Assembly (NCBI GenBank): GCA_041645165.1
Contig: JBAZQN010000001.1
Coordinates: 1-51,970, forward strand
Length of the DNA: 51,970 nucleotides
Direction: 5' to 3'
Source of the DNA: Patescibacteria group bacterium
Lineage (GTDB): Bacteria > Patescibacteriota > Patescibacteriia > 2-02-FULL-49-11
Part shown: positions 5,014 to 39,297 of the stretch, one piece after another
Layout: each line of letters starts with the position of its first letter
Position numbering within the stretch: position 1 is the first letter of the stretch
Program-made: the position numbers and the translations under genes
Notes under the pieces: generated by a model
What the model saw: only the letters and a program-made list of their open reading frames with translations
What the model was told of the DNA's origin: nothing
The model's database searches: none

Positions 5014-5029
5014 GTGCGAGGCATGTCTG

Positions 5030-5163
5030 TATAAAAAGACGCGGTTGTCCCGCCCTGCGAGCGGGACACCGCTCGGCTCTCGGGTTCGCTCCTCCGACGT
5101 GGCGTCGGAGACCGTGCCCGCTCACCCTCCGAGACGCTTTTTATTGCAGCCACTCCTCGCTTG
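5030..5163 (+). repeat. Structured direct repeat, family D, copy 1
   Basis: ATAAAAAGACGCGGTTGTCCCGCCCTGCGAGCGGGACACCGCTCGGCTCTCGGGTTCGCTC...GAGACGCTTTTTATTGCAGCCACTCCTCGCTTG. Nearly identical to 5607-5735 except for the central hairpin. Confidence 0.85.
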
Positions 5164-5302
5164 GGGGGATATAGGAAATCGGTTTCGTGACGGTCTGGAA
5201 AAGACATTACTTCGTATACTAAAAAGTAGGGGGAGAGAAGGTAGGTAACCATTTAGCAATTTAATGTAAAGGTCCATTGTAAAATAATTATTCTCATTAT
5301 GT

Positions 5303-5584
5303 ATGAATACCTTAAGTTATAAAGTTACCGGTTGGACCGTGTCAGTGTTTTCAGTGTTGAGCTATGCCTTATGTTTCCTCTGGGCGTATACGCTGGCGGG
5401 CGATTTGAGAGAAATGCATGTGAATTGGCTGCGGATGGCGTATTTGAAATTTGCCGGACTTGATGTGATGAGTTTTTTGTCAGGACTTGTGCAGACGTTT
5501 GTGTGGGCATGGATTGCGGTGATCGCGTTTGTCTGGTTGTGGAACAGGTTTTACCATAAGTTCGAGAAGACGGGGACAGCATAG
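5303..5584 (+). CDS. Small integral membrane protein (93 aa, about 3 TM)
   Basis: Hydrophobic segments VSVFSVLSYALCFLWAY, FLSGLVQTFVWAWIAVIAFVWLW. The gene is flanked by the two family D repeats. Confidence 0.55.
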   Translation: MNTLSYKVTGWTVSVFSVLSYALCFLWAYTLAGDLREMHVNWLRMAYLKFAGLDVMSFLSGLVQTFVWAWIAVIAFVWLWNRFYHKFEKTGTA

Positions 5585-5606
5585 GAGAGGCGCTCGGAGT
5601 GTTTGC

Positions 5607-5735
5607 ATAAAAAGACGCGGTTGTCCCGCCCTGCGAGCGGGACACCGCTCGGCTCTCGGGTTCGCTCTCCCGCTTCGCGGGATCCGTGCCCGCTCACCCT
5701 CCGAGACGCTTTTTATTGCACCCACTCCTCGCTTG
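5607..5735 (+). repeat. Structured direct repeat, family D, copy 2
   Basis: Same 5' and 3' blocks as 5030-5163. The central hairpin is TCCCGC-TTC-GCGGGA instead of CTCCGACG-TGG-CGTCGGAG. Confidence 0.85.
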
Positions 5736-5753
5736 AGGTTAAGAGTTGAAGCT

Positions 5754-5786
5754 GCGAGGGTGTTCACGAACGCACATCCTCGCTTG
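5754..5786 (+). repeat. Hairpin repeat, family E, copy 1
   Basis: GCGAGGGTGTTCACGAACGCACATCCTCGCTTG, identical to 5871-5903. Confidence 0.8.
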
Positions 5787-5870
5787 GGAAAATTAGGAAG
5801 ATCCATACCCGCGGAATCTCCGAGACACTTTCCTTCACAGGCAATCCTCACTTGGGGGGAGTAAAGAGTT

Positions 5871-5903
5871 GCGAGGGTGTTCACGAACGCACATCCTCGC
5901 TTG
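5871..5903 (+). repeat. Hairpin repeat, family E, copy 2
   Basis: Identical 33-mer to 5754-5786. The stem is GCGAGG/CCTCGC. Confidence 0.8.
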
Positions 5904-10039: not shown

Positions 10040-10175
10040 ATACTAAACAAATCCAAATATCCAAAATCAAAACAATTTGAAACATTGGCTATTGGAATTT
10101 TGAATTTTCCGCCGAAGGCGGATCCGCCTTTGGCGTGAGTTTAGAGTTTAGAAATTAGTGCTTAGAGTTTATCAA
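10016..10175. repeat. AT-rich long palindromic element, family G (CTAAAC/GTTTAG arms)
   Basis: The left arm CCTAAACCCTAAACCCTAAATACTAAAC overlaps the scpA stop. The right arm is GTTTAGAGTTTAGAAATTAGTGCTTAGAG. The core is related to 15716-15842. Confidence 0.7.
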
Positions 10176-13733: not shown

Positions 13734-13802
13734 TGCCGTTGTAGCTCCACCGCTGGAGCGGGGCAGGCAGTTGGTACCCCGCAAATGCGGGGCATGGTAA
13801 GG
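13734..13802 (+). other. tRNA-Thr 5'-half-like fragment interrupted by GC hairpins
   Basis: GCCGTTGTAGCTC[caccgctggagcggggcaggc]AGTTGGTA[ccccgcaaatgcgggg]CATGGTAAGGA. The capitals are identical to the 13934-14009 tRNA. Confidence 0.6.
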
Positions 13803-13933
13803 ATGTGGTCTAGGAAAAACGTCATTTTGAAGCTAGGATTAGCCAAGGTGAAAAAAATGATGACCACTTCCTTGGGGTACATGGTCGCGGGCTAATGGGA
13901 AGACGAACGCAATTTTACAACCAAAAATCATAT

Positions 13934-14009
13934 GCCGTTGTAGCTCAGTTGGTAGAGCAACTCCATGGTAAGGAGTAGGTCGTCGGTTCAATTCCGACCA
14001 ACGGCTCCA
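13934..14009 (+). tRNA. tRNA-Thr (anticodon GGT), CCA encoded
   Basis: Acceptor GCCGTTG/CAACGGC, anticodon stem ACTCC/GGAGT with loop ATGGTAA, and T arm GTCGG-TTCAATT-CCGAC. Confidence 0.9.
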
Positions 14010-14030
14010 GATTTTTTCAGAGCTGCAAAG

Positions 14031-14197
14031 GCAGCTCCACCGCTGGAGCGGGGCAGGCAGGCATGGTAAGTCCCGCCGCACAATATTTATTGTAAAAATA
14101 ATGAAGGCGGGATCCCGCCAAGGCGGGAGAAGTAGGTCCCCCGCACAATGCGGGGCAACGGCTCCAGATTTTTTCAGAGCTGCAAAGACAGCTCCAC
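14031..14197 (+). other. tRNA-Thr-derived mosaic, with a 42-bp direct repeat of the tRNA 3' end and trailer
   Basis: AGCTC[same insert]..CATGGTAAG[60-nt insert]AGTAGGTC[ccccgcacaatgcgggg replacing the T arm]CAACGGCTCCA. The stretch 13999-14040 is repeated at 14156-14197 with one mismatch. Confidence 0.65.
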
Positions 14198-15219: not shown

Positions 15220-15295
15220 GCCACCTTAGCTCAGCTGGCAGAGCAACACTTTTGTAAAGTGAAGGTCCTCGGTTCGAATCCGAGAGGTGGCTCCA
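15220..15295 (+). tRNA. tRNA-Thr (anticodon TGT), CCA encoded
   Basis: Acceptor GCCACCT/AGGTGGC, anticodon loop TTTGTAA, and T arm CTCGG-TTCGAAT-CCGAG. Confidence 0.9.
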
Positions 15296-15335
15296 GTATT
15301 CTTAATTCATTATTCCTAATTCTTTTGAAAGTATG

Positions 15336-15556
15336 CCCAGCAATACAACATCCAAGAGGGAGGCAAGACCTTATGCACATTTGAAGATAGATTGTAGGAG
15401 AGGCTTTATTAAGTAGAATGTTTTTTTCTTCGCCTCCCTCACGACTCGCCAAACGTTAAGAATAATGACAGAAAAAATTTATTCACTATGGTCGTATTAT
15501 TACATGATAATCATTCAGCAACAGCGCCGTTTGGCGTTGGATGTTGATATACTGGG
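15336..15556 (+). mobile_element. Structured 221-bp element, family H, copy 1, abutting the rpmG start codon
   Basis: Terminal inverted repeats are CCCAGCAATACAACATCCAA / TTGGATGTTGATATACTGGG. The internal stem is GAGGGAGGC/GCCTCCCTC. TATG lies on both flanks (15332-15335 and 15557-15560). A homologous copy lies at 37499-37721. Confidence 0.75.
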
Positions 15557-15557
15557 T

Positions 15558-15713
15558 ATGCCCTCACAAGATAATCTCATCAAAATGGAGTGCACGGATT
15601 GCCATCGCGTAGGATACTATACTTACAAGAACAAGCGGGTGAAAGTGCGCTTGGAACTCAAGAAGCACTGCAAGTTCTGCAAGAAACACACGATGCATAA
15701 GGAGACCAAATGA
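15558..15713 (+). CDS. rpmG: 50S ribosomal protein L33
   Basis: MPSQDNLIKMECTDCHRVGYYTYKNKRVKVRLELKKHCKFCKKHTMHKETK. It has the CxxC...CxxC zinc ribbon and the LELKKxCxxCxKHTxHKE signature. Confidence 0.9.
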   Translation: MPSQDNLIKMECTDCHRVGYYTYKNKRVKVRLELKKHCKFCKKHTMHKETK

Positions 15714-15715
15714 GA

Positions 15716-15842
15716 AATCCTAAACTCTAAGCACTAAATTCTAAACAAAATTCCAATGGCCGAAATTCAAAACGTATTTTTGGACATTTGGATTTCGAAT
15801 TTAGTATTTGTTTAGGGTTTCGGATTTAGGATTTAGAATTTT
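15716..15842. repeat. AT-rich long palindromic element, family G
   Basis: AATCCTAAACTCTAAGCACTAAATTCTAAAC ... GTTTAGGGTTTCGGATTTAGGATTTAGAATT fills the whole rpmG-to-next-gene spacer. Confidence 0.7.
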
Positions 15843-16226: not shown

Positions 16227-16297
16227 GGGGGGTTCGTATAACGGTAGTACAATGGTCTCCAAAACCATTAGCGAGGGTCCGACTCCTTCACCCCCTG
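16227..16297 (+). tRNA. tRNA-Trp (anticodon CCA)
   Basis: Anticodon stem ATGGT/ACCAT with loop CTCCAAA, and T arm GAGGG-TCCGACT-CCTTC. Acceptor GGGGGGT/ACCCCCT has a G-T pair at 1-72. The discriminator is G. Confidence 0.8.
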
Positions 16298-16315
16298 AAT
16301 TTACATAGCAATAAC

Positions 16316-16339
16316 CCAGAGGTAATCCCTCTGGTTTTT
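16316..16339 (+). terminator. Rho-independent terminator after tRNA-Trp
   Basis: CCAGAGG-TAATC-CCTCTGG-TTTTT. Confidence 0.75.
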
Positions 16340-16376
16340 GATTTATTTAAGTATTATTATGGTATAATTTATTTGT

Positions 16377-18497
16377 ATGCACAGACATGGTATCTTGTTT
16401 TCTAAACCGACTATTATTTCCTTTTTAGCAATTTTAAGCATTGCTGGTATCGCAGTTTATGTGATCCAAACAAAAGAGCAGGGCCAAGTTGCCGGCGTCT
16501 GTTCCGCAAAATCAGTAACTTCCACCAGCTTCATCAAAACTTTTCACTTGCTTGATTTAACTGACGGTTTTGACATTTCATTCACTAAAGATGGCGGATA
16601 TTTGCTGACCGGCGACATTCTTCCGGCCTCTGGCATGGGAGCGCCAAAACCTTATATTATCCAAACCGATACTAAGGGGAATCCACTATGGAGCAGGCAG
16701 TTTAGCAGTAAAAGCATGGCTCTTGGGCTGATGTCGTCCCGGCGGATCGGGCGTCTCGCTCTAGAGACGATTGACGGCAATATTGTCACGGCCATCGATG
16801 TACTGGATTTTGTTGATGAAAACGTGAAAGAACTCTATGGCGATATTTTGGTGACCAAAATTAGTAAAAAGGGAACGCAGCTCTGGTCATTGATGCTTGG
16901 CGATTATAGTATAGATCGTCCGCAAAAAATATGGGCTTTATCGGATGGCGGTGTGTTGCTCCTTGCCCGTTTCATGCAAACCGGTTATGGCACTGATGTA
17001 GGCGATACTGATGCAGTGCCCAAGTATAGCGTTTTAATAAAAATTGATAAAAACGGGAAAGTGCAATTTGCAAAAAAATTGAATTGGGAAGCAGAGGATG
17101 TGCAATATTTAGCTGATGGCAGTTTTATCGCCTTGGCCAATATTGTTGTTCCAAAAACTGAACAGCCAGAAAATATTTTGGGGCAGGAGTTGGTTCCGCA
17201 CGCCTTGCCGACCGTTATAAAACTGGACAGTGATTTTAAAGTGGCGTGGGCGAAGAGCCTTGAGATGATTCCGTCGGAGATAAATGCTCCCACCAGTTAT
17301 TCTGGCAGCAGTTTTACCATGGGAAAAACCGCTATCCGCATGCCGGGCGGTGACTTTAGGGCGGTTCAGCCTGTGCCCGACGGCGGTTTTATTGCGTTCG
17401 GTTTTGGCGATTTAAGTCTAATTTCGGGGCTGATGACGGGATCAGCCAATACTATCAATAGTTTTTCCGCGCGATCATTGATCGCGGTCAAGGTCGATAA
17501 GGTAGGGAATTACAAATGGGCAAAAAAATTAACTGTAAATATGACCTCTAGCCCATCAAGTAATGATTTTCAGGTGATAAAAACTTTGGACGATTATTTT
17601 GTGATTATGCAGGATGTGGTGCGCGAGAGCGCAAAGGTGCAAGCGGCTGATTTTAATTTATCGCCAGAGGCATTGGCCTCAAATATTGAATTGATTAAAA
17701 CTGATGTCGATTTTAATCCGATGTGGGTGAAAAAAATTAATGCGGAACGGGATTTGTCAGGCTATGGCATCGCGCCGACAGCCGATAAGGGAGTTGTGAT
17801 TGCCAGCAGTATGCTCACCACTAAACAGCATATAGTAATGATGAGTCTGGAACCATATAAGGAGGCGGCTTTGATAAAAGTTGATGTCAATGGCGAGGTG
17901 CGCGGATGTCCCGGAGTAACGGATTACCGCGGGGCAACGGTGGAAGACCAAAGCAGCTATTTGGTGATGCAAAGTATGCAGGTCGATGGGGCTGAAAATA
18001 TGACGTTGCCTATTAATAAAAAGGTAAAAGAAAAGGTTTTCCTCATAAAAAATACGGCGCGAGACATTTGTAAATATCAAAAAAGTAGCGTAGCGCCAAA
18101 TTGTTCCGTTTCCCTACCGCTGACGTCAGGTCAGACAGTCACGCCGCCCACGCCCAAAACCTGGGCGCTGATCGGCTATGGAAACACCAAAGAAGTCGCA
18201 GTAGACGGCGAGAAGAACCAGGCTGTTCATAAAGAATTACTGCCAATACTTAACCAAATTTTCAATAACCAGGTGAAATTAAAAGATAGCATGAAAAGCA
18301 TGTGGCTCACCTATGTGTTCCCACGTCAGGTGACGCGCTCGGACGTGGAAGTCGTGCAGAAAAAATATGAGGAACTGGGCTACAAGATTGACCAGTCAGA
18401 AGGAGGCGTGCTGTGGGTTTCCAAGATTGGACTGACATTGCATCTGATTTTCTCTATTCAAAATTCCATGGTTGGAAAATTAGAAGTGTTATTTTAA
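16377..18497 (+). CDS. Large anchored/secreted repeat protein, beta-propeller-like (706 aa)
   Basis: N-terminal TM segment. Then recurring units of about 50-60 aa with DGG[YVF]-type strands and G-x3-W-x-K/R-x-L motifs (NPLWSRQF, TQLWSLML, KVQFAKKL, KVAWAKSL, YKWAKKL, NPMWVKKI). Visibly AT-richer than the flanks. Confidence 0.65.
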   Translation: MHRHGILFSKPTIISFLAILSIAGIAVYVIQTKEQGQVAGVCSAKSVTSTSFIKTFHLLDLTDGFDISFTKDGGYLLTGDILPASGMGAPKPYIIQTDTKGNPLWSRQFSSKSMALGLMSSRRIGRLALETIDGNIVTAIDVLDFVDENVKELYGDILVTKISKKGTQLWSLMLGDYSIDRPQKIWALSDGGVLLLARFMQTGYGTDVGDTDAVPKYSVLIKIDKNGKVQFAKKLNWEAEDVQYLADGSFIALANIVVPKTEQPENILGQELVPHALPTVIKLDSDFKVAWAKSLEMIPSEINAPTSYSGSSFTMGKTAIRMPGGDFRAVQPVPDGGFIAFGFGDLSLISGLMTGSANTINSFSARSLIAVKVDKVGNYKWAKKLTVNMTSSPSSNDFQVIKTLDDYFVIMQDVVRESAKVQAADFNLSPEALASNIELIKTDVDFNPMWVKKINAERDLSGYGIAPTADKGVVIASSMLTTKQHIVMMSLEPYKEAALIKVDVNGEVRGCPGVTDYRGATVEDQSSYLVMQSMQVDGAENMTLPINKKVKEKVFLIKNTARDICKYQKSSVAPNCSVSLPLTSGQTVTPPTPKTWALIGYGNTKEVAVDGEKNQAVHKELLPILNQIFNNQVKLKDSMKSMWLTYVFPRQVTRSDVEVVQKKYEELGYKIDQSEGGVLWVSKIGLTLHLIFSIQNSMVGKLEVLF

Positions 18498-18572: not shown

Positions 18573-18643
18573 GAATTCCAGTTCTAACATCGTCCACGAT
18601 GCCCTGAATTTACATGGCAATAACCCAGAGGTAACGTCTCTGG
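18573..18643 (+). repeat. tRNA-Trp 3'-end-derived repeat R1 (att-like) with hairpin
   Basis: 18602-18634 matches 16293-16325 (tRNA-Trp 3' end plus trailer) at 32 of 33 positions. 18573-18606 is identical to 19159-19192. Confidence 0.8.
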
Positions 18644-18734
18644 TTATTAGTTGATAAAATGATATAATGAATATGTACATATTTAGGTCGATCCCAAACA
18701 TCAAATTGAATCTTAATTTATTAACTTAAATACT

Positions 18735-19158: not shown

Positions 19159-19223
19159 GAATTCCAGTTCTAACATCGTCCACGATGCCCTGCCATATTT
19201 CACCCCGATTCTTGGGGTGTTTT
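19159..19223 (+). repeat. tRNA-Trp 3'-end-derived repeat R2 plus terminator-like hairpin
   Basis: GAATTCCAGTTCTAACATCGTCCACGATGCCCTG is identical to R1. It is followed by CACCCC-GATTCTT-GGGGTG-TTTT. Confidence 0.75.
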
Positions 19224-37460: not shown

Positions 37461-37489
37461 TTGTGAGAGCGTGTTATGAGTGCTATAAT
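37461..37489 (+). promoter_or_regulatory. Sigma-70-type promoter: TTGTGA, 17-nt spacer containing an extended-10 TG, then TATAAT
   Basis: The -35 is at 37461-37466 and the -10 at 37484-37489. The predicted start site falls on or next to the A of the ATG at 37496, the left flank of the family H element. Confidence 0.5.
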
Positions 37490-37498
37490 TGCACTATG

Positions 37499-37721
37499 CC
37501 CCGCAATACAACATCCAAGAGGGAGGCGGGAACTTAAGAGTGGAGAATGGATGAACTTGAGGGAGTCTGGGCGTGCGCATTAAGAGATAGTTTCATTGCC
37601 TCCCTCATTATATCGCCACACTCGCTTTTAATCATATTTTAGACTATGCTACTATAGTCGTTTTATTCATCAAAACTATCTCACGCCATTTATGTGTGGC
37701 GTTGGATGTTGTTATACGGGG
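37499..37721 (+). mobile_element. Structured 223-bp element, family H, copy 2, abutting the start codon of a tiny basic ORF
   Basis: Terminal inverted repeats are CCCCGCAATACAACATCCAA / TTGGATGTTGTTATACGGGG. The internal stem is GAGGGAGGC/GCCTCCCTC. TATG lies on both flanks (37495-37498 and 37722-37725). Confidence 0.75.
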
Positions 37722-37722
37722 T

Positions 37723-37803
37723 ATGAACAAGAAGCGAAAAATAGCGCAAAAGAAACACCGCAAGAAGTCAGGGAAGAAAATTGGTGCGGTGAGGAATAGA
37801 TAA
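37723..37803 (+). CDS. 26-aa Lys/Arg-rich peptide, resembling very small ribosomal proteins (bS22/bL37 style)
   Basis: MNKKRKIAQKKHRKKSGKKIGAVRNR is below the ORF-track cutoff. Its position relative to the family H element is the same as for rpmG. Confidence 0.45.
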   Translation: MNKKRKIAQKKHRKKSGKKIGAVRNR

Positions 37804-37809
37804 TGCGGT

Positions 37810-39297
37810 ATGCGGAATAGCGCCTTGATGCGCATGAATGCACTTCTGCGCCGTTTCAGGGAGTATGCCGTGCCCGCGGGGCTTGTGTGTGCCACTGCGG
37901 TTTTTTTTAGTTGGCAGCTGGGCGCGGTGCCGCTCGTTGATTACGACGAGGCGACGTACGCGCAGGTTGCCATGGAAACGCGGGAGAACGGCGACCTTGC
38001 GCATCTAGTACGTTTGGGGCGTCCGTGGCTTGATAAGCCTCCGCTCTATTTCTGGCTTGCCATGGGGTCGGTGCGCTTGTTTGGCGAACAGGAATGGTCG
38101 TTTCGCATCCCCTCGGTGCTTGCGGCAATGGCGACGGTGTGGTGCGTGTATGCGCTCATGGCGAGACTTACCCGAATGCGCGCGGTGGCCGCGGCAGCAA
38201 GCGGTATCCTCATGGCGTCGCCCATTTACTTTATGTACGCGCGTGAAGCGCGCCTTGATGCGGGAGTAACGCTTGCGCTCGTGGCGGCGCTGTACTTTAC
38301 CGTGAGAGGATGGAAGAATCCTGTTTTTTTATTGGGGATTTTGCCTGCCCTTGCGATGGGATTTTACATGAAAAGTTTTGTGGTATTTCTTGCCTTGCCG
38401 GTGCTTCTTGTGTACAGCGCGGCGTACCATCATTGGGAGTGGATTAAATCAAAGTATTTATGGTTTGGGGGATTGGCGGCCGCGGCGCTGCTGTTTCCTT
38501 GGCATTATCTTCAATATATAAAGTTCGGGCATGAATTCATCCAGACCTATTTTATTTTTCAGGTCCTTGCCCGGTCAGTGACGACCCTGACAGGCACCAG
38601 CCATATCTTAAGTTACGCGGCAAACCTCTGGATATACCATCAGCCTTGGACCGCAGGGCTTCTCGTGGCTATGGGAGCGCTAATCTGCGTTCGTGCATTG
38701 AGCCGATCTCACAGGAAAATCAGTCCGCATGTGTTAGCGCCATTTCTTTCTGCCGTTATCATCGTCGGCTTATTTACCCTCATGCGCACTCATTTGTCGT
38801 CCTATCTTGTGCCGTCGTTTCCTTTTTTGGCGATGGCAGGAGCCATGTGCGCCTGGGAGGTTAGCGCCACGTTGATTCGACGCCGATTTGCCTACGTAGG
38901 TATTATGATAATCCTGCTTGCGTTCGGTTTTTTTGAAACATGGCAATTGAGGTATAACCTGGTTTTCCCCTATCACTTTGAAGAACGCGCCGCAGGCATG
39001 CGCATACAACAGGACAACCGAGGCCAAGCGCCGGTCTATATCGTCAATTGGCCGTACCATGAGACTATCCGCTATTACGGGAGCACCGATATAGTGCCGC
39101 TCAATTTGCAGGATTCAGGCGGCCGGCACTTGAAAGCCCCTTTTTATTTTTTGGTAAATACTCAAGCGGCGTCATTTCTCAACGACACCGCAGGGAATCC
39201 GCCTACGGCATATCCGGGCGTGCAAGAGCTTTATCGGGGCGAGTACCTGTGGCTGTTGAAATCAACCATCGATTTTACCCTGCCGACTTTTCAATAA
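37810..39297 (+). CDS. ArnT/PMT-like glycosyltransferase (GT39/GT83 family, polytopic membrane)
   Basis: VPLVDYDEATYAQVAMETRENGD...LDKPPLYFWLAMGSVRLFG is the typical first-loop DE motif region. About 11-12 TM segments follow. Confidence 0.8.
   Translation: MRNSALMRMNALLRRFREYAVPAGLVCATAVFFSWQLGAVPLVDYDEATYAQVAMETRENGDLAHLVRLGRPWLDKPPLYFWLAMGSVRLFGEQEWSFRIPSVLAAMATVWCVYALMARLTRMRAVAAAASGILMASPIYFMYAREARLDAGVTLALVAALYFTVRGWKNPVFLLGILPALAMGFYMKSFVVFLALPVLLVYSAAYHHWEWIKSKYLWFGGLAAAALLFPWHYLQYIKFGHEFIQTYFIFQVLARSVTTLTGTSHILSYAANLWIYHQPWTAGLLVAMGALICVRALSRSHRKISPHVLAPFLSAVIIVGLFTLMRTHLSSYLVPSFPFLAMAGAMCAWEVSATLIRRRFAYVGIMIILLAFGFFETWQLRYNLVFPYHFEERAAGMRIQQDNRGQAPVYIVNWPYHETIRYYGSTDIVPLNLQDSGGRHLKAPFYFLVNTQAASFLNDTAGNPPTAYPGVQELYRGEYLWLLKSTIDFTLPTFQ

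Follow-up and report, generated by a model that had tools for sequence, protein, structure and literature searches.

A New MITE-Like Element Family Found at TATG Start Codons in Patescibacteria

Introduction

Rickettsia palindromic elements insert in frame and are translated within the protein, and the Correia elements of Neisseria (CREE/NEMIS) are about 100–155 bp long, duplicate TA, and carry an IHF site and promoter halves. Correia elements give rise to long-duplex transcripts that RNase III can cut, and they alter the expression of adjacent genes (PMC2649163). More generally, MITEs are defined by terminal inverted repeats (TIRs), target duplications, the lack of a transposase and folding into a stem-loop (PMC3184786). 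The REP2 repeats of Neisseria and the upstream repeats of Borrelia lie immediately 5′ of genes, and contain internal stem-loops and a repeat-associated ATG (PMC3184786).

Here, we analyze an element of 221–230 bp that occurs twice in a stretch of 51,970 nucleotides from a Patescibacteria group bacterium (GenBank assembly GCA_041645165.1, contig JBAZQN010000001.1, positions 1 to 51,970 of the forward strand), hereafter referred to as the window. Patescibacteria have tiny, densely packed genomes that are thought to carry little mobile DNA, and our full-text literature search found no such element described in this group. Based on the analyses below, the element represents a new MITE-like family.

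The element shares with bacterial MITEs its short length, the lack of a transposase, TIRs, direct repeats, several copies and a long stem-loop, as well as the fusion of element ORFs with neighboring genes by gene callers (PMC3184786). Unlike published MITEs, however, it shows an apparent duplication of TATG, its surviving TATG copies stand exactly on start codons in a fixed orientation, and it folds not into a simple hairpin but into a conserved three-way junction round two free loops of fixed length. Also unlike other MITEs, its hosts are Patescibacteria, and no parent IS was found. Like CREE, it is a MITE-like repeat adjoining genes, and CREE provide a model for the possible processing of its terminal stem, P1. 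However, the two have no sequence similarity, CREE are not tied to start codons, and the −10-like TATACT that some copies of the element have at the 3′ end is replaced by TATACG in three of seven independent loci, and is hence not conserved. Whereas the REP2 and Borrelia repeats supply a promoter, an RBS and an ATG, the ATG of this element would be the duplicated start of the host gene, and the element has neither an RBS nor a conserved promoter. As with the Rickettsia elements, a palindromic mobile repeat is tolerated touching coding sequence in a reduced genome, but here the repeat forms no part of the protein, and its own ORFs lack conservation. Finally, palindrome-associated elements derived from IS200/IS605 likewise have a tetranucleotide at the left flank, a fixed orientation and subterminal hairpins. 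However, they have neither TIRs nor a target duplication, whereas the termini of the present element pair over 18 bp, and its off-target flanks are CAAG on both sides.

Two Copies in the Window

Both window copies, at the positions that a sequence-only reading had reported, have 20-nt inverted termini with TATG on each side. The features of the two copies are as follows.

15332–15335, + strand: left target copy TATG of copy 1 (putative); relatives have a single TATG at the same site
15333–15335, + strand: left ATG of copy 1, with the original upstream context retained
15333–15416, + strand: 27-codon non-conserved ORF, MPSNTTSKREARPYAHLKIDCRRGFIK followed by a stop codon, opened by the left ATG of copy 1
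15336–15556: element copy 1
15336–15355, + strand: left terminal inverted repeat, the 5′ arm of P1, CCCAGCAATACAACATCCAA; 18 pairs with the right arm
15356–15364, + strand: 5′ strand of stem P2, GAGGGAGGC; 9 pairs
15365–15431, + strand: variable loop L2, 67 nt (67–74 nt across copies; 37% identity)
15432–15455, + strand: conserved central block, comprising the P2 3′ strand GCCTCCCTC, the junction ACGACT and the P3 5′ strand CGCCAAACG
15456–15527, + strand: loop L3, with a semi-conserved GTCGC..CAT motif (70–72 nt by alignment columns; 50% identity)
15528–15536, + strand: P3 3′ strand, CGTTTGGCG; changes on both sides at 3 P3 pairs
15537–15556, + strand: right terminal inverted repeat, the 3′ arm of P1, TTGGATGTTGATATACTGGG
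15557–15560, + strand: right target copy TATG (putative), whose ATG (15558–15560) is the rpmG start
15558–15713, + strand: rpmG, ribosomal protein L33, 51 aa, frame intact
37461–37489, + strand: promoter-like TTGTGA-17-TATAAT with an upstream TG, ending 6 nt before the left ATG of copy 2
37495–37498, + strand: left TATG of copy 2
37499–37721, + strand: element copy 2, 223 bp
37722–37725, + strand: right TATG of copy 2, whose ATG opens a 26-aa basic ORF (37723–37803)
37810–39297: PMT_2/ArnT-like glycosyltransferase, 3′ of the 26-aa basic ORF

End blocks of 25 nt and 15 nt are identical between the two copies, each occurring twice in the window and in none of 100 shuffles, and the interiors are essentially unalignable. 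Both copies fold more stably than shuffled sequence (z = −4.6 for copy 1 and −4.1 for copy 2).

That the right ATG of copy 1 is the start of L33 was borne out by profile matches of the protein read from 15558 (Pfam PF00471, 1.9e-15; TIGR01023, 4e-15), which begin at residue 6–7, and most of the listed related Patescibacteria L33 proteins are likewise 51 aa long. The left ATG does open a short ORF, and copy 2 has the same geometry in front of a tiny basic ORF, both as had been read from the letters. Upstream of copy 2, the promoter-like site has the geometry that would be expected of a leaderless mRNA.

The 26-aa basic ORF after copy 2 has no family match in Pfam, NCBIfam or PDB. Ribosomal protein bS22, which the ORF resembles, was considered as a candidate and rejected on the same searches. 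Within the region 37723–37812, the terminal TAATG of this ORF overlaps a 5-codon ORF with a well-placed GAGGA, and that short ORF itself overlaps the glycosyltransferase ATG. An 88% identical relative (L037) retains the six final codons of the 26-aa ORF, with one synonymous change.

Further Copies and Evidence for Insertion

In total, the family comprises seven independent loci and two orthologous strain variants (L036 of L001, and L039 of the rpmG copy in the window), all in Patescibacteria. The flanks and positions of the independent loci are listed below.

Window copy 1: TATG/TATG, at the rpmG start
Window copy 2: TATG/TATG, at the start of the 26-aa ORF
L021: TATG/TATG, at the start of an 82-aa membrane ORF, after ruvB
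L045: TATG/TATG, at the murC start, after murG
L046: TATG/TATG, at the start of a GspM-like gene
L001 (with L036): CAAG/CAAG, intergenic, antisense to its neighbors
L033: CATG/TATA, with ATA in frame in place of the expected ATG, before a putative 63-aa ORF

Exact 18-mer scans of genome and metagenome collections gave mostly chance matches, and the true copies among them were L001 (identical to L030; Candidatus Uhrbacteria), L021 and L033, the latter two on two contigs of one metagenome. Among the genomes of 185,579 species there was one true match to the 18-mer, which covers 8 nt beyond the terminal repeat. L036 was recovered with a profile built from ORFs of the element, a composite profile of such ORFs found two proteins only, and a full HMMER scan with the same type of profile added three more ORFs, two of which led to the DNA of L045 and L046. 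L039 was found through a search for L33 and is a strain variant with the element at the same rpmG site. Neither phages, plasmids nor viral contigs yielded copies or a parent element, and nhmmer over 301 kb of DNA gave no additional copies. The element family is rare in databases. A Logan assembly from the same organism as the window is interrupted within the 5′ end of the element, as expected for a repeat.

Evidence for insertion comes from the rpmG locus. In three relatives (L040, L041 and L042), tRNA-Thr is followed by a 43–51 nt spacer and a single TATG-rpmG without the element, whereas in the window and L039, which are otherwise arranged alike, TATG-element-TATG takes the place of the single TATG. 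These empty sites come from related genera, with L33 76–78% identical, rather than from strains; two of them (L041 and L042) are Magasanikbacteria-type with L33 78% identical, and L042 also shares the tpiA-TPR-tRNA-rpmG gene order of the window. The presence of empty sites in three relatives indicates that the element is an insertion and not an ancestral leader. At copy 2, the only close relative (L037, 88% identical) is a 1.6-kb contig with 28 nt upstream, and it yielded no empty site.

Matching 4-bp direct repeats flank the element at six of the seven independent loci (TATG at five, CAAG at one), and those of L033 are imperfect. These flanks fit a 4-bp target-site duplication. In particular, the matching but off-consensus CAAG flanks are what a 4-bp duplication predicts, and argue against a terminal TATG supplied by the element itself. 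Furthermore, the copies stand in differing gene contexts at the seven loci, and their targets are unrelated.

Conserved Structure of the Element

A three-way junction, closed by the terminal stem P1, carries P2 (GAGGGAGGC/GCCTCCCTC) and P3 (CGCCAMACG/CGTKTGGCG, a long-range helix), giving a Y-shaped core. In an alignment of nine sequences, 98.8% of positions in the 37 pairs are paired, 30 of the 37 pairs are invariant, and in four (one in P1, three in P3) both partners have changed. All 18 pairs of P1 are present in all nine sequences, 17 of them invariant. The remaining one carries the compensatory change CCCAG/CTGGG versus CCCCG/CGGGG that had been noticed between the window copies; it is real, and recurs in L033 and L045. 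Seven of the nine P2 pairs are invariant and the other two are a G-U wobble and a mismatch, and without a compensatory change P2 yields no evidence of covariation. P2 is nevertheless conserved round unrelated L2 loops, as had been proposed; by contrast, the labeling of its strands as SD and anti-SD is unsupported, since the genome barely uses SD sequences. A 3′ hairpin CGCC..GGCG, also proposed, can form, but it competes with P3, whose three covarying pairs carry the compensatory changes.

Core columns are about 90% identical between independent copies, compared with 37% for L2 and 50% for L3, and the loop lengths are nonetheless near-constant. The predicted structure has a folding energy of about −65 to −80 kcal/mol and lies directly 5′ of genes such as rpmG and murC. 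That the stems are kept in sequence, beyond what pairing needs, points to a constraint at the level of the element.

A second CGCC(A) motif is found on the 3′ side of L3, just 5′ of the P3 3′ strand (e.g., at 15524–15536 and 37682–37701). The local hairpin formed from it, which is the one proposed from the sequence alone, is present in six of the seven independent copies and excludes P3, and two folds are possible.

Rfam searches, whether with gathering thresholds or relaxed to E ≤ 10, returned only noise, with no family matching the element, and group I, group II and ribozyme models gave no match. Forward and reverse strands fold equally well, and hence nothing marks a strand-specific RNA. 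Element-derived ORFs contain no Pfam domain. A small protein encoded by the element was considered, as an ORF ending in GVGC and a stop codon is open in several copies and has database matches, and was rejected on the lack of codon-position bias (substitutions of 130/101/110 by codon position); one closer pair was suggestive of coding but not significant (p = 0.09). Programming by a guide or bridge RNA was rejected as well, as the interiors match their own flanks over 6–8 nt versus 5–10 nt for the flanks of other copies. An outward 3′ promoter was likewise set aside: TGnTATACT is present in some copies, with TATACG instead in window copy 2, L033 and L045. An internal GATAAT/CATAAT box is found in window copy 1 and L021 only.

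Placement on Start Codons

All five TATG copies stand exactly on a start codon and in the orientation of the gene. At L045, the left ATG follows the murG stop by 9 nt, and the right ATG opens an ORF that matches the murC profile from residue 13 onward; at L046, the GspM-like gene is called from the right ATG. The neighbors of L001 are comF and tRNA-Ser, and this copy is antisense to each of them. None of the seven loci is intragenic.

The host context accounts for part of this placement, as these hosts are rich in T-ATG starts and poor in SD sequences. About three quarters of the ATG starts in the window (26 of 35) are T-ATG, a habit also seen in the called genes of the related Patescibacteria loci, and SD sequences are almost absent in the window. 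TATAAT or a −10-like box often lies 6–11 nt upstream of the ATG (for example at 16377, 19348, 40871 and 37461–37498). The sequence suggests that mRNAs with no leader or a very short one may be the norm in the window. However, of the 385 TATG sites in the window, 299 fall at least partly outside intergenic sequence, mostly within ORFs, and start codons make up only 26 of the 112 TATG sites that are intergenic or on a start (~23%, the other ~77% being intergenic). Five of five copies on starts against an expected 23% corresponds to 0.23^5, or ~6e-4, a value that is indicative only, given the small number and two copies that were found through ORF calls.

Consequences for the Downstream Genes

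The reading frames after the element are intact (e.g., rpmG and murC). Between the window and L039, both of which carry the insertion, rpmG differs by four synonymous and no non-synonymous changes, while the element differs at 21 positions. The synonymous-only changes indicate that L33 is kept under purifying selection with the element in place.

In our computations, opening the region from −12 to +12 at the right ATG costs 12–27 kcal/mol with the element, compared with 4–9 kcal/mol in the reconstructed empty sites, and the left ATG is likewise buried once P1 forms. The sequence-only reading had suggested that this helix might either bring the native upstream context next to the genuine start or hide that start; by the present model, strong occlusion of both ATGs is to be expected. 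Every start-codon copy has an intact left ATG, and the ORF that it opens traverses the P1 5′ arm and P2 and stops after 13–71 codons; at L045, it ends at a TGA 10 nt before the murC ATG. During transcription, the left ATG would emerge about 200 nt ahead of its pairing partner. Ribosomes starting there would occupy the P1 5′ arm, leave the helix open and free the right ATG, a coupling by unmasking of structure. Cleavage of the long P1 duplex by RNase III might provide an alternative route. For the continued translation of the downstream genes, unmasking by ribosomes from the left ATG may be the most economical explanation.

Public gene calls run into the 3′ arm of the element, where the over-extended calls read ...ALDVDILG-M. 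L33 is called with 69 aa instead of 51 at L039 (1442–1651, protein P0043), and MurC with 13 extra residues at L045 (6188–7633).

What the Element Is

We consider it probable, at roughly 0.75, that the element, 221–230 bp long with 20-nt imperfect TIRs and no gene of its own, is a MITE-type non-autonomous transposable element. It is short and lacks a transposase gene, it has TIRs and flanking direct repeats, and it is found at unrelated loci and at an occupied site that is empty in relatives. This agrees with one of the two interpretations originally offered, namely a MITE that lands on TATG starts and regenerates them, which the empty sites, the direct repeats at six of seven loci and the five of seven copies on unrelated starts uphold. 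A transposase would presumably act in trans, making a 4-bp staggered cut with a preference for TATG (loosely YAWG), an enzyme class that we infer. Since most starts in these SD-poor hosts are T-ATG, insertion at a start codon leaves two copies of the ATG. That on the left would then stay with the native promoter or coupling context and open a short meaningless ORF, and the right copy would again head an intact gene. Start-codon copies might moreover be over-represented among the survivors, as imprecise deletion there could kill the gene.

Several observations count against the MITE reading. P2 and P3 pair repeat-adjacent sequence with a central block, which double-strand cut-and-paste does not need, and the loop lengths are oddly constant. 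The same orientation of all five copies relative to the non-palindromic TATG argues against a symmetric transposase, and the occupation of starts in five of five cases, when about 77% of the tolerable TATG sites are intergenic, argues against a plain MITE. In addition, L033 lacks a clean duplication. An autonomous partner with the same termini was not found in the 18-mer scans (with the 18-mer reaching 8 nt beyond the repeat) or among phages, plasmids and viral contigs, which also counts against this reading, and no transposase was found among the ten larger ORFs of the window.

The fixed orientation to TATG in five of five copies and the presence of a hairpin (P2, P3) 20 nt in from each end would suit an IS200/IS605-like or other single-strand element, inserted 3′ of TATG and carrying its own terminal TATG, in which the flanking repeat would be target plus element end, and P2 and P3 would be subterminal hairpins read by the enzyme. 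The CATG/TATA flanks of L033 would also need fewer ad hoc changes. However, we regard this as improbable, given that L001 and L036 have CAAG on both sides and yet match the TATG copies in the sequences at the feet of P2 and P3, which indicates duplication and not guide-based recognition. Moreover, the 20-nt termini are complementary to each other, a feature absent from the IS200/IS605 family, P2 and P3 are unrelated in sequence and enclose loops of ~70 nt, and both strands fold equally well. Removal of the element at the RNA level, either as a self-splicing intron or through ribosome bypass from the left to the right ATG, would make sense of two identical ATGs at the base of one helix and of the intact rpmG and murC frames. 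It is nevertheless very unlikely, as no group I, group II or ribozyme model matched, the termini, as read from the sequence, misfit the splice-site rules of group I and II introns, both strands fold alike, and none of the seven copies lies within a coding region, although the majority of TATG sites in the window (299 of 385) are not wholly intergenic, and most of these lie inside ORFs.

The other alternatives give the element a function for the host. The second original interpretation, a cis-regulatory leader RNA common to very small ribosomal-protein genes, drew on the tiny basic ORFs (L33 and the 26-aa ORF) that follow both window copies and on the highly structured RNA. It can practically be dismissed: the element is absent 5′ of rpmG in three relatives, it also precedes murC, the GspM-like gene and the membrane ORF and occurs antisense in an intergenic region, the 26-aa ORF matches nothing ribosomal, and there is no Rfam match. 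Rather improbable, in our view, is that the element, once inserted, was retained and selected as a structured leader, in which the three-way junction couples or tunes initiation at the regenerated ATG. Stems and arm lengths would in that case be preserved by selection at the level of the host, which would also explain the start-codon copies. This would be consistent with a core 90% identical against loops of 37–50%, with an L3 of always 70–72 nt, and with the high computed cost of opening the start despite synonymous-only change in rpmG and intact frames. It would also fit the left ATG kept in all start-codon copies, with an ORF that always runs through the P1 5′ arm. Between orthologous pairs, the stems changed less (4/149) than the loops (21/306), but the difference is not significant (Fisher p = 0.08). 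On the other hand, the invariance of 30 of 37 pairs is conservation of sequence, folding shows no strand asymmetry, the intergenic antisense copies L001 and L036 have the same core, and relatives have the same genes without the element.

For the MITE-like family favored here, a more far-reaching version is that the element is start-codon-specific or addictive, in that its machinery recognizes regions of translation or transcription start, beyond TATG itself, or that the junction has become part of initiation in SD-less, near-leaderless hosts. We hold this to be unlikely. If the junction did become part of initiation, ribosomes starting at the original ATG would open the helix so that initiation could pass to the regenerated one, and the element would be a mobile translational-coupling cassette that the host could lose only by exact excision. 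More generally, a transposon family would survive at the one position where its target duplication repairs the damage, and strong structure before rpmG and murC in hosts nearly without SD sequences offers a natural experiment on start-codon choice. There are practical consequences as well, as annotated L33 and MurC reach into the element and assembly is interrupted there.

Other Repeats in the Window

Directly 3′ of rpmG, at 15714–15842, lies a member of a palindromic AT-rich repeat family (TAAACTCTAAGCACTAAATTCTAAAC...), with inverted matches at 10076–10171. Its 96% complementary partners are ~5.5 kb away, and the repeat is also present in L039. In L039 (1128–1200, compared with 15220–15260 of the window), the 5′ half of the tRNA-Thr(tgt) that precedes the element is replaced by unrelated sequence, and the 3′ half and the spacer are identical to those of the window, reflecting either a rearrangement or an assembly chimera in this 1.8-kb contig.

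The region 5024–5903 contains GC-rich direct repeats, with 73-nt and 55-nt units spaced ~575 nt apart and 37-nt units at 117 nt, and only a dubious antisense ORF is called in this block. The 3′ part of tRNA-Thr(ggt) is duplicated together with downstream sequence (13971–14040 versus 14128–14197, 84% identical, within the region 13743–14197), and a 28-nt exact repeat occurs at 13743 and 14033. This partial duplication of the tRNA is of the kind that integrating elements leave. Finally, hairpin-containing repeats at 16293–16346 and 18602–18655 (85% identical), and at 18573–18606 and 19159–19192 (100%), follow tRNA-Trp and flank small ORFs, and look like a further small repeat family.
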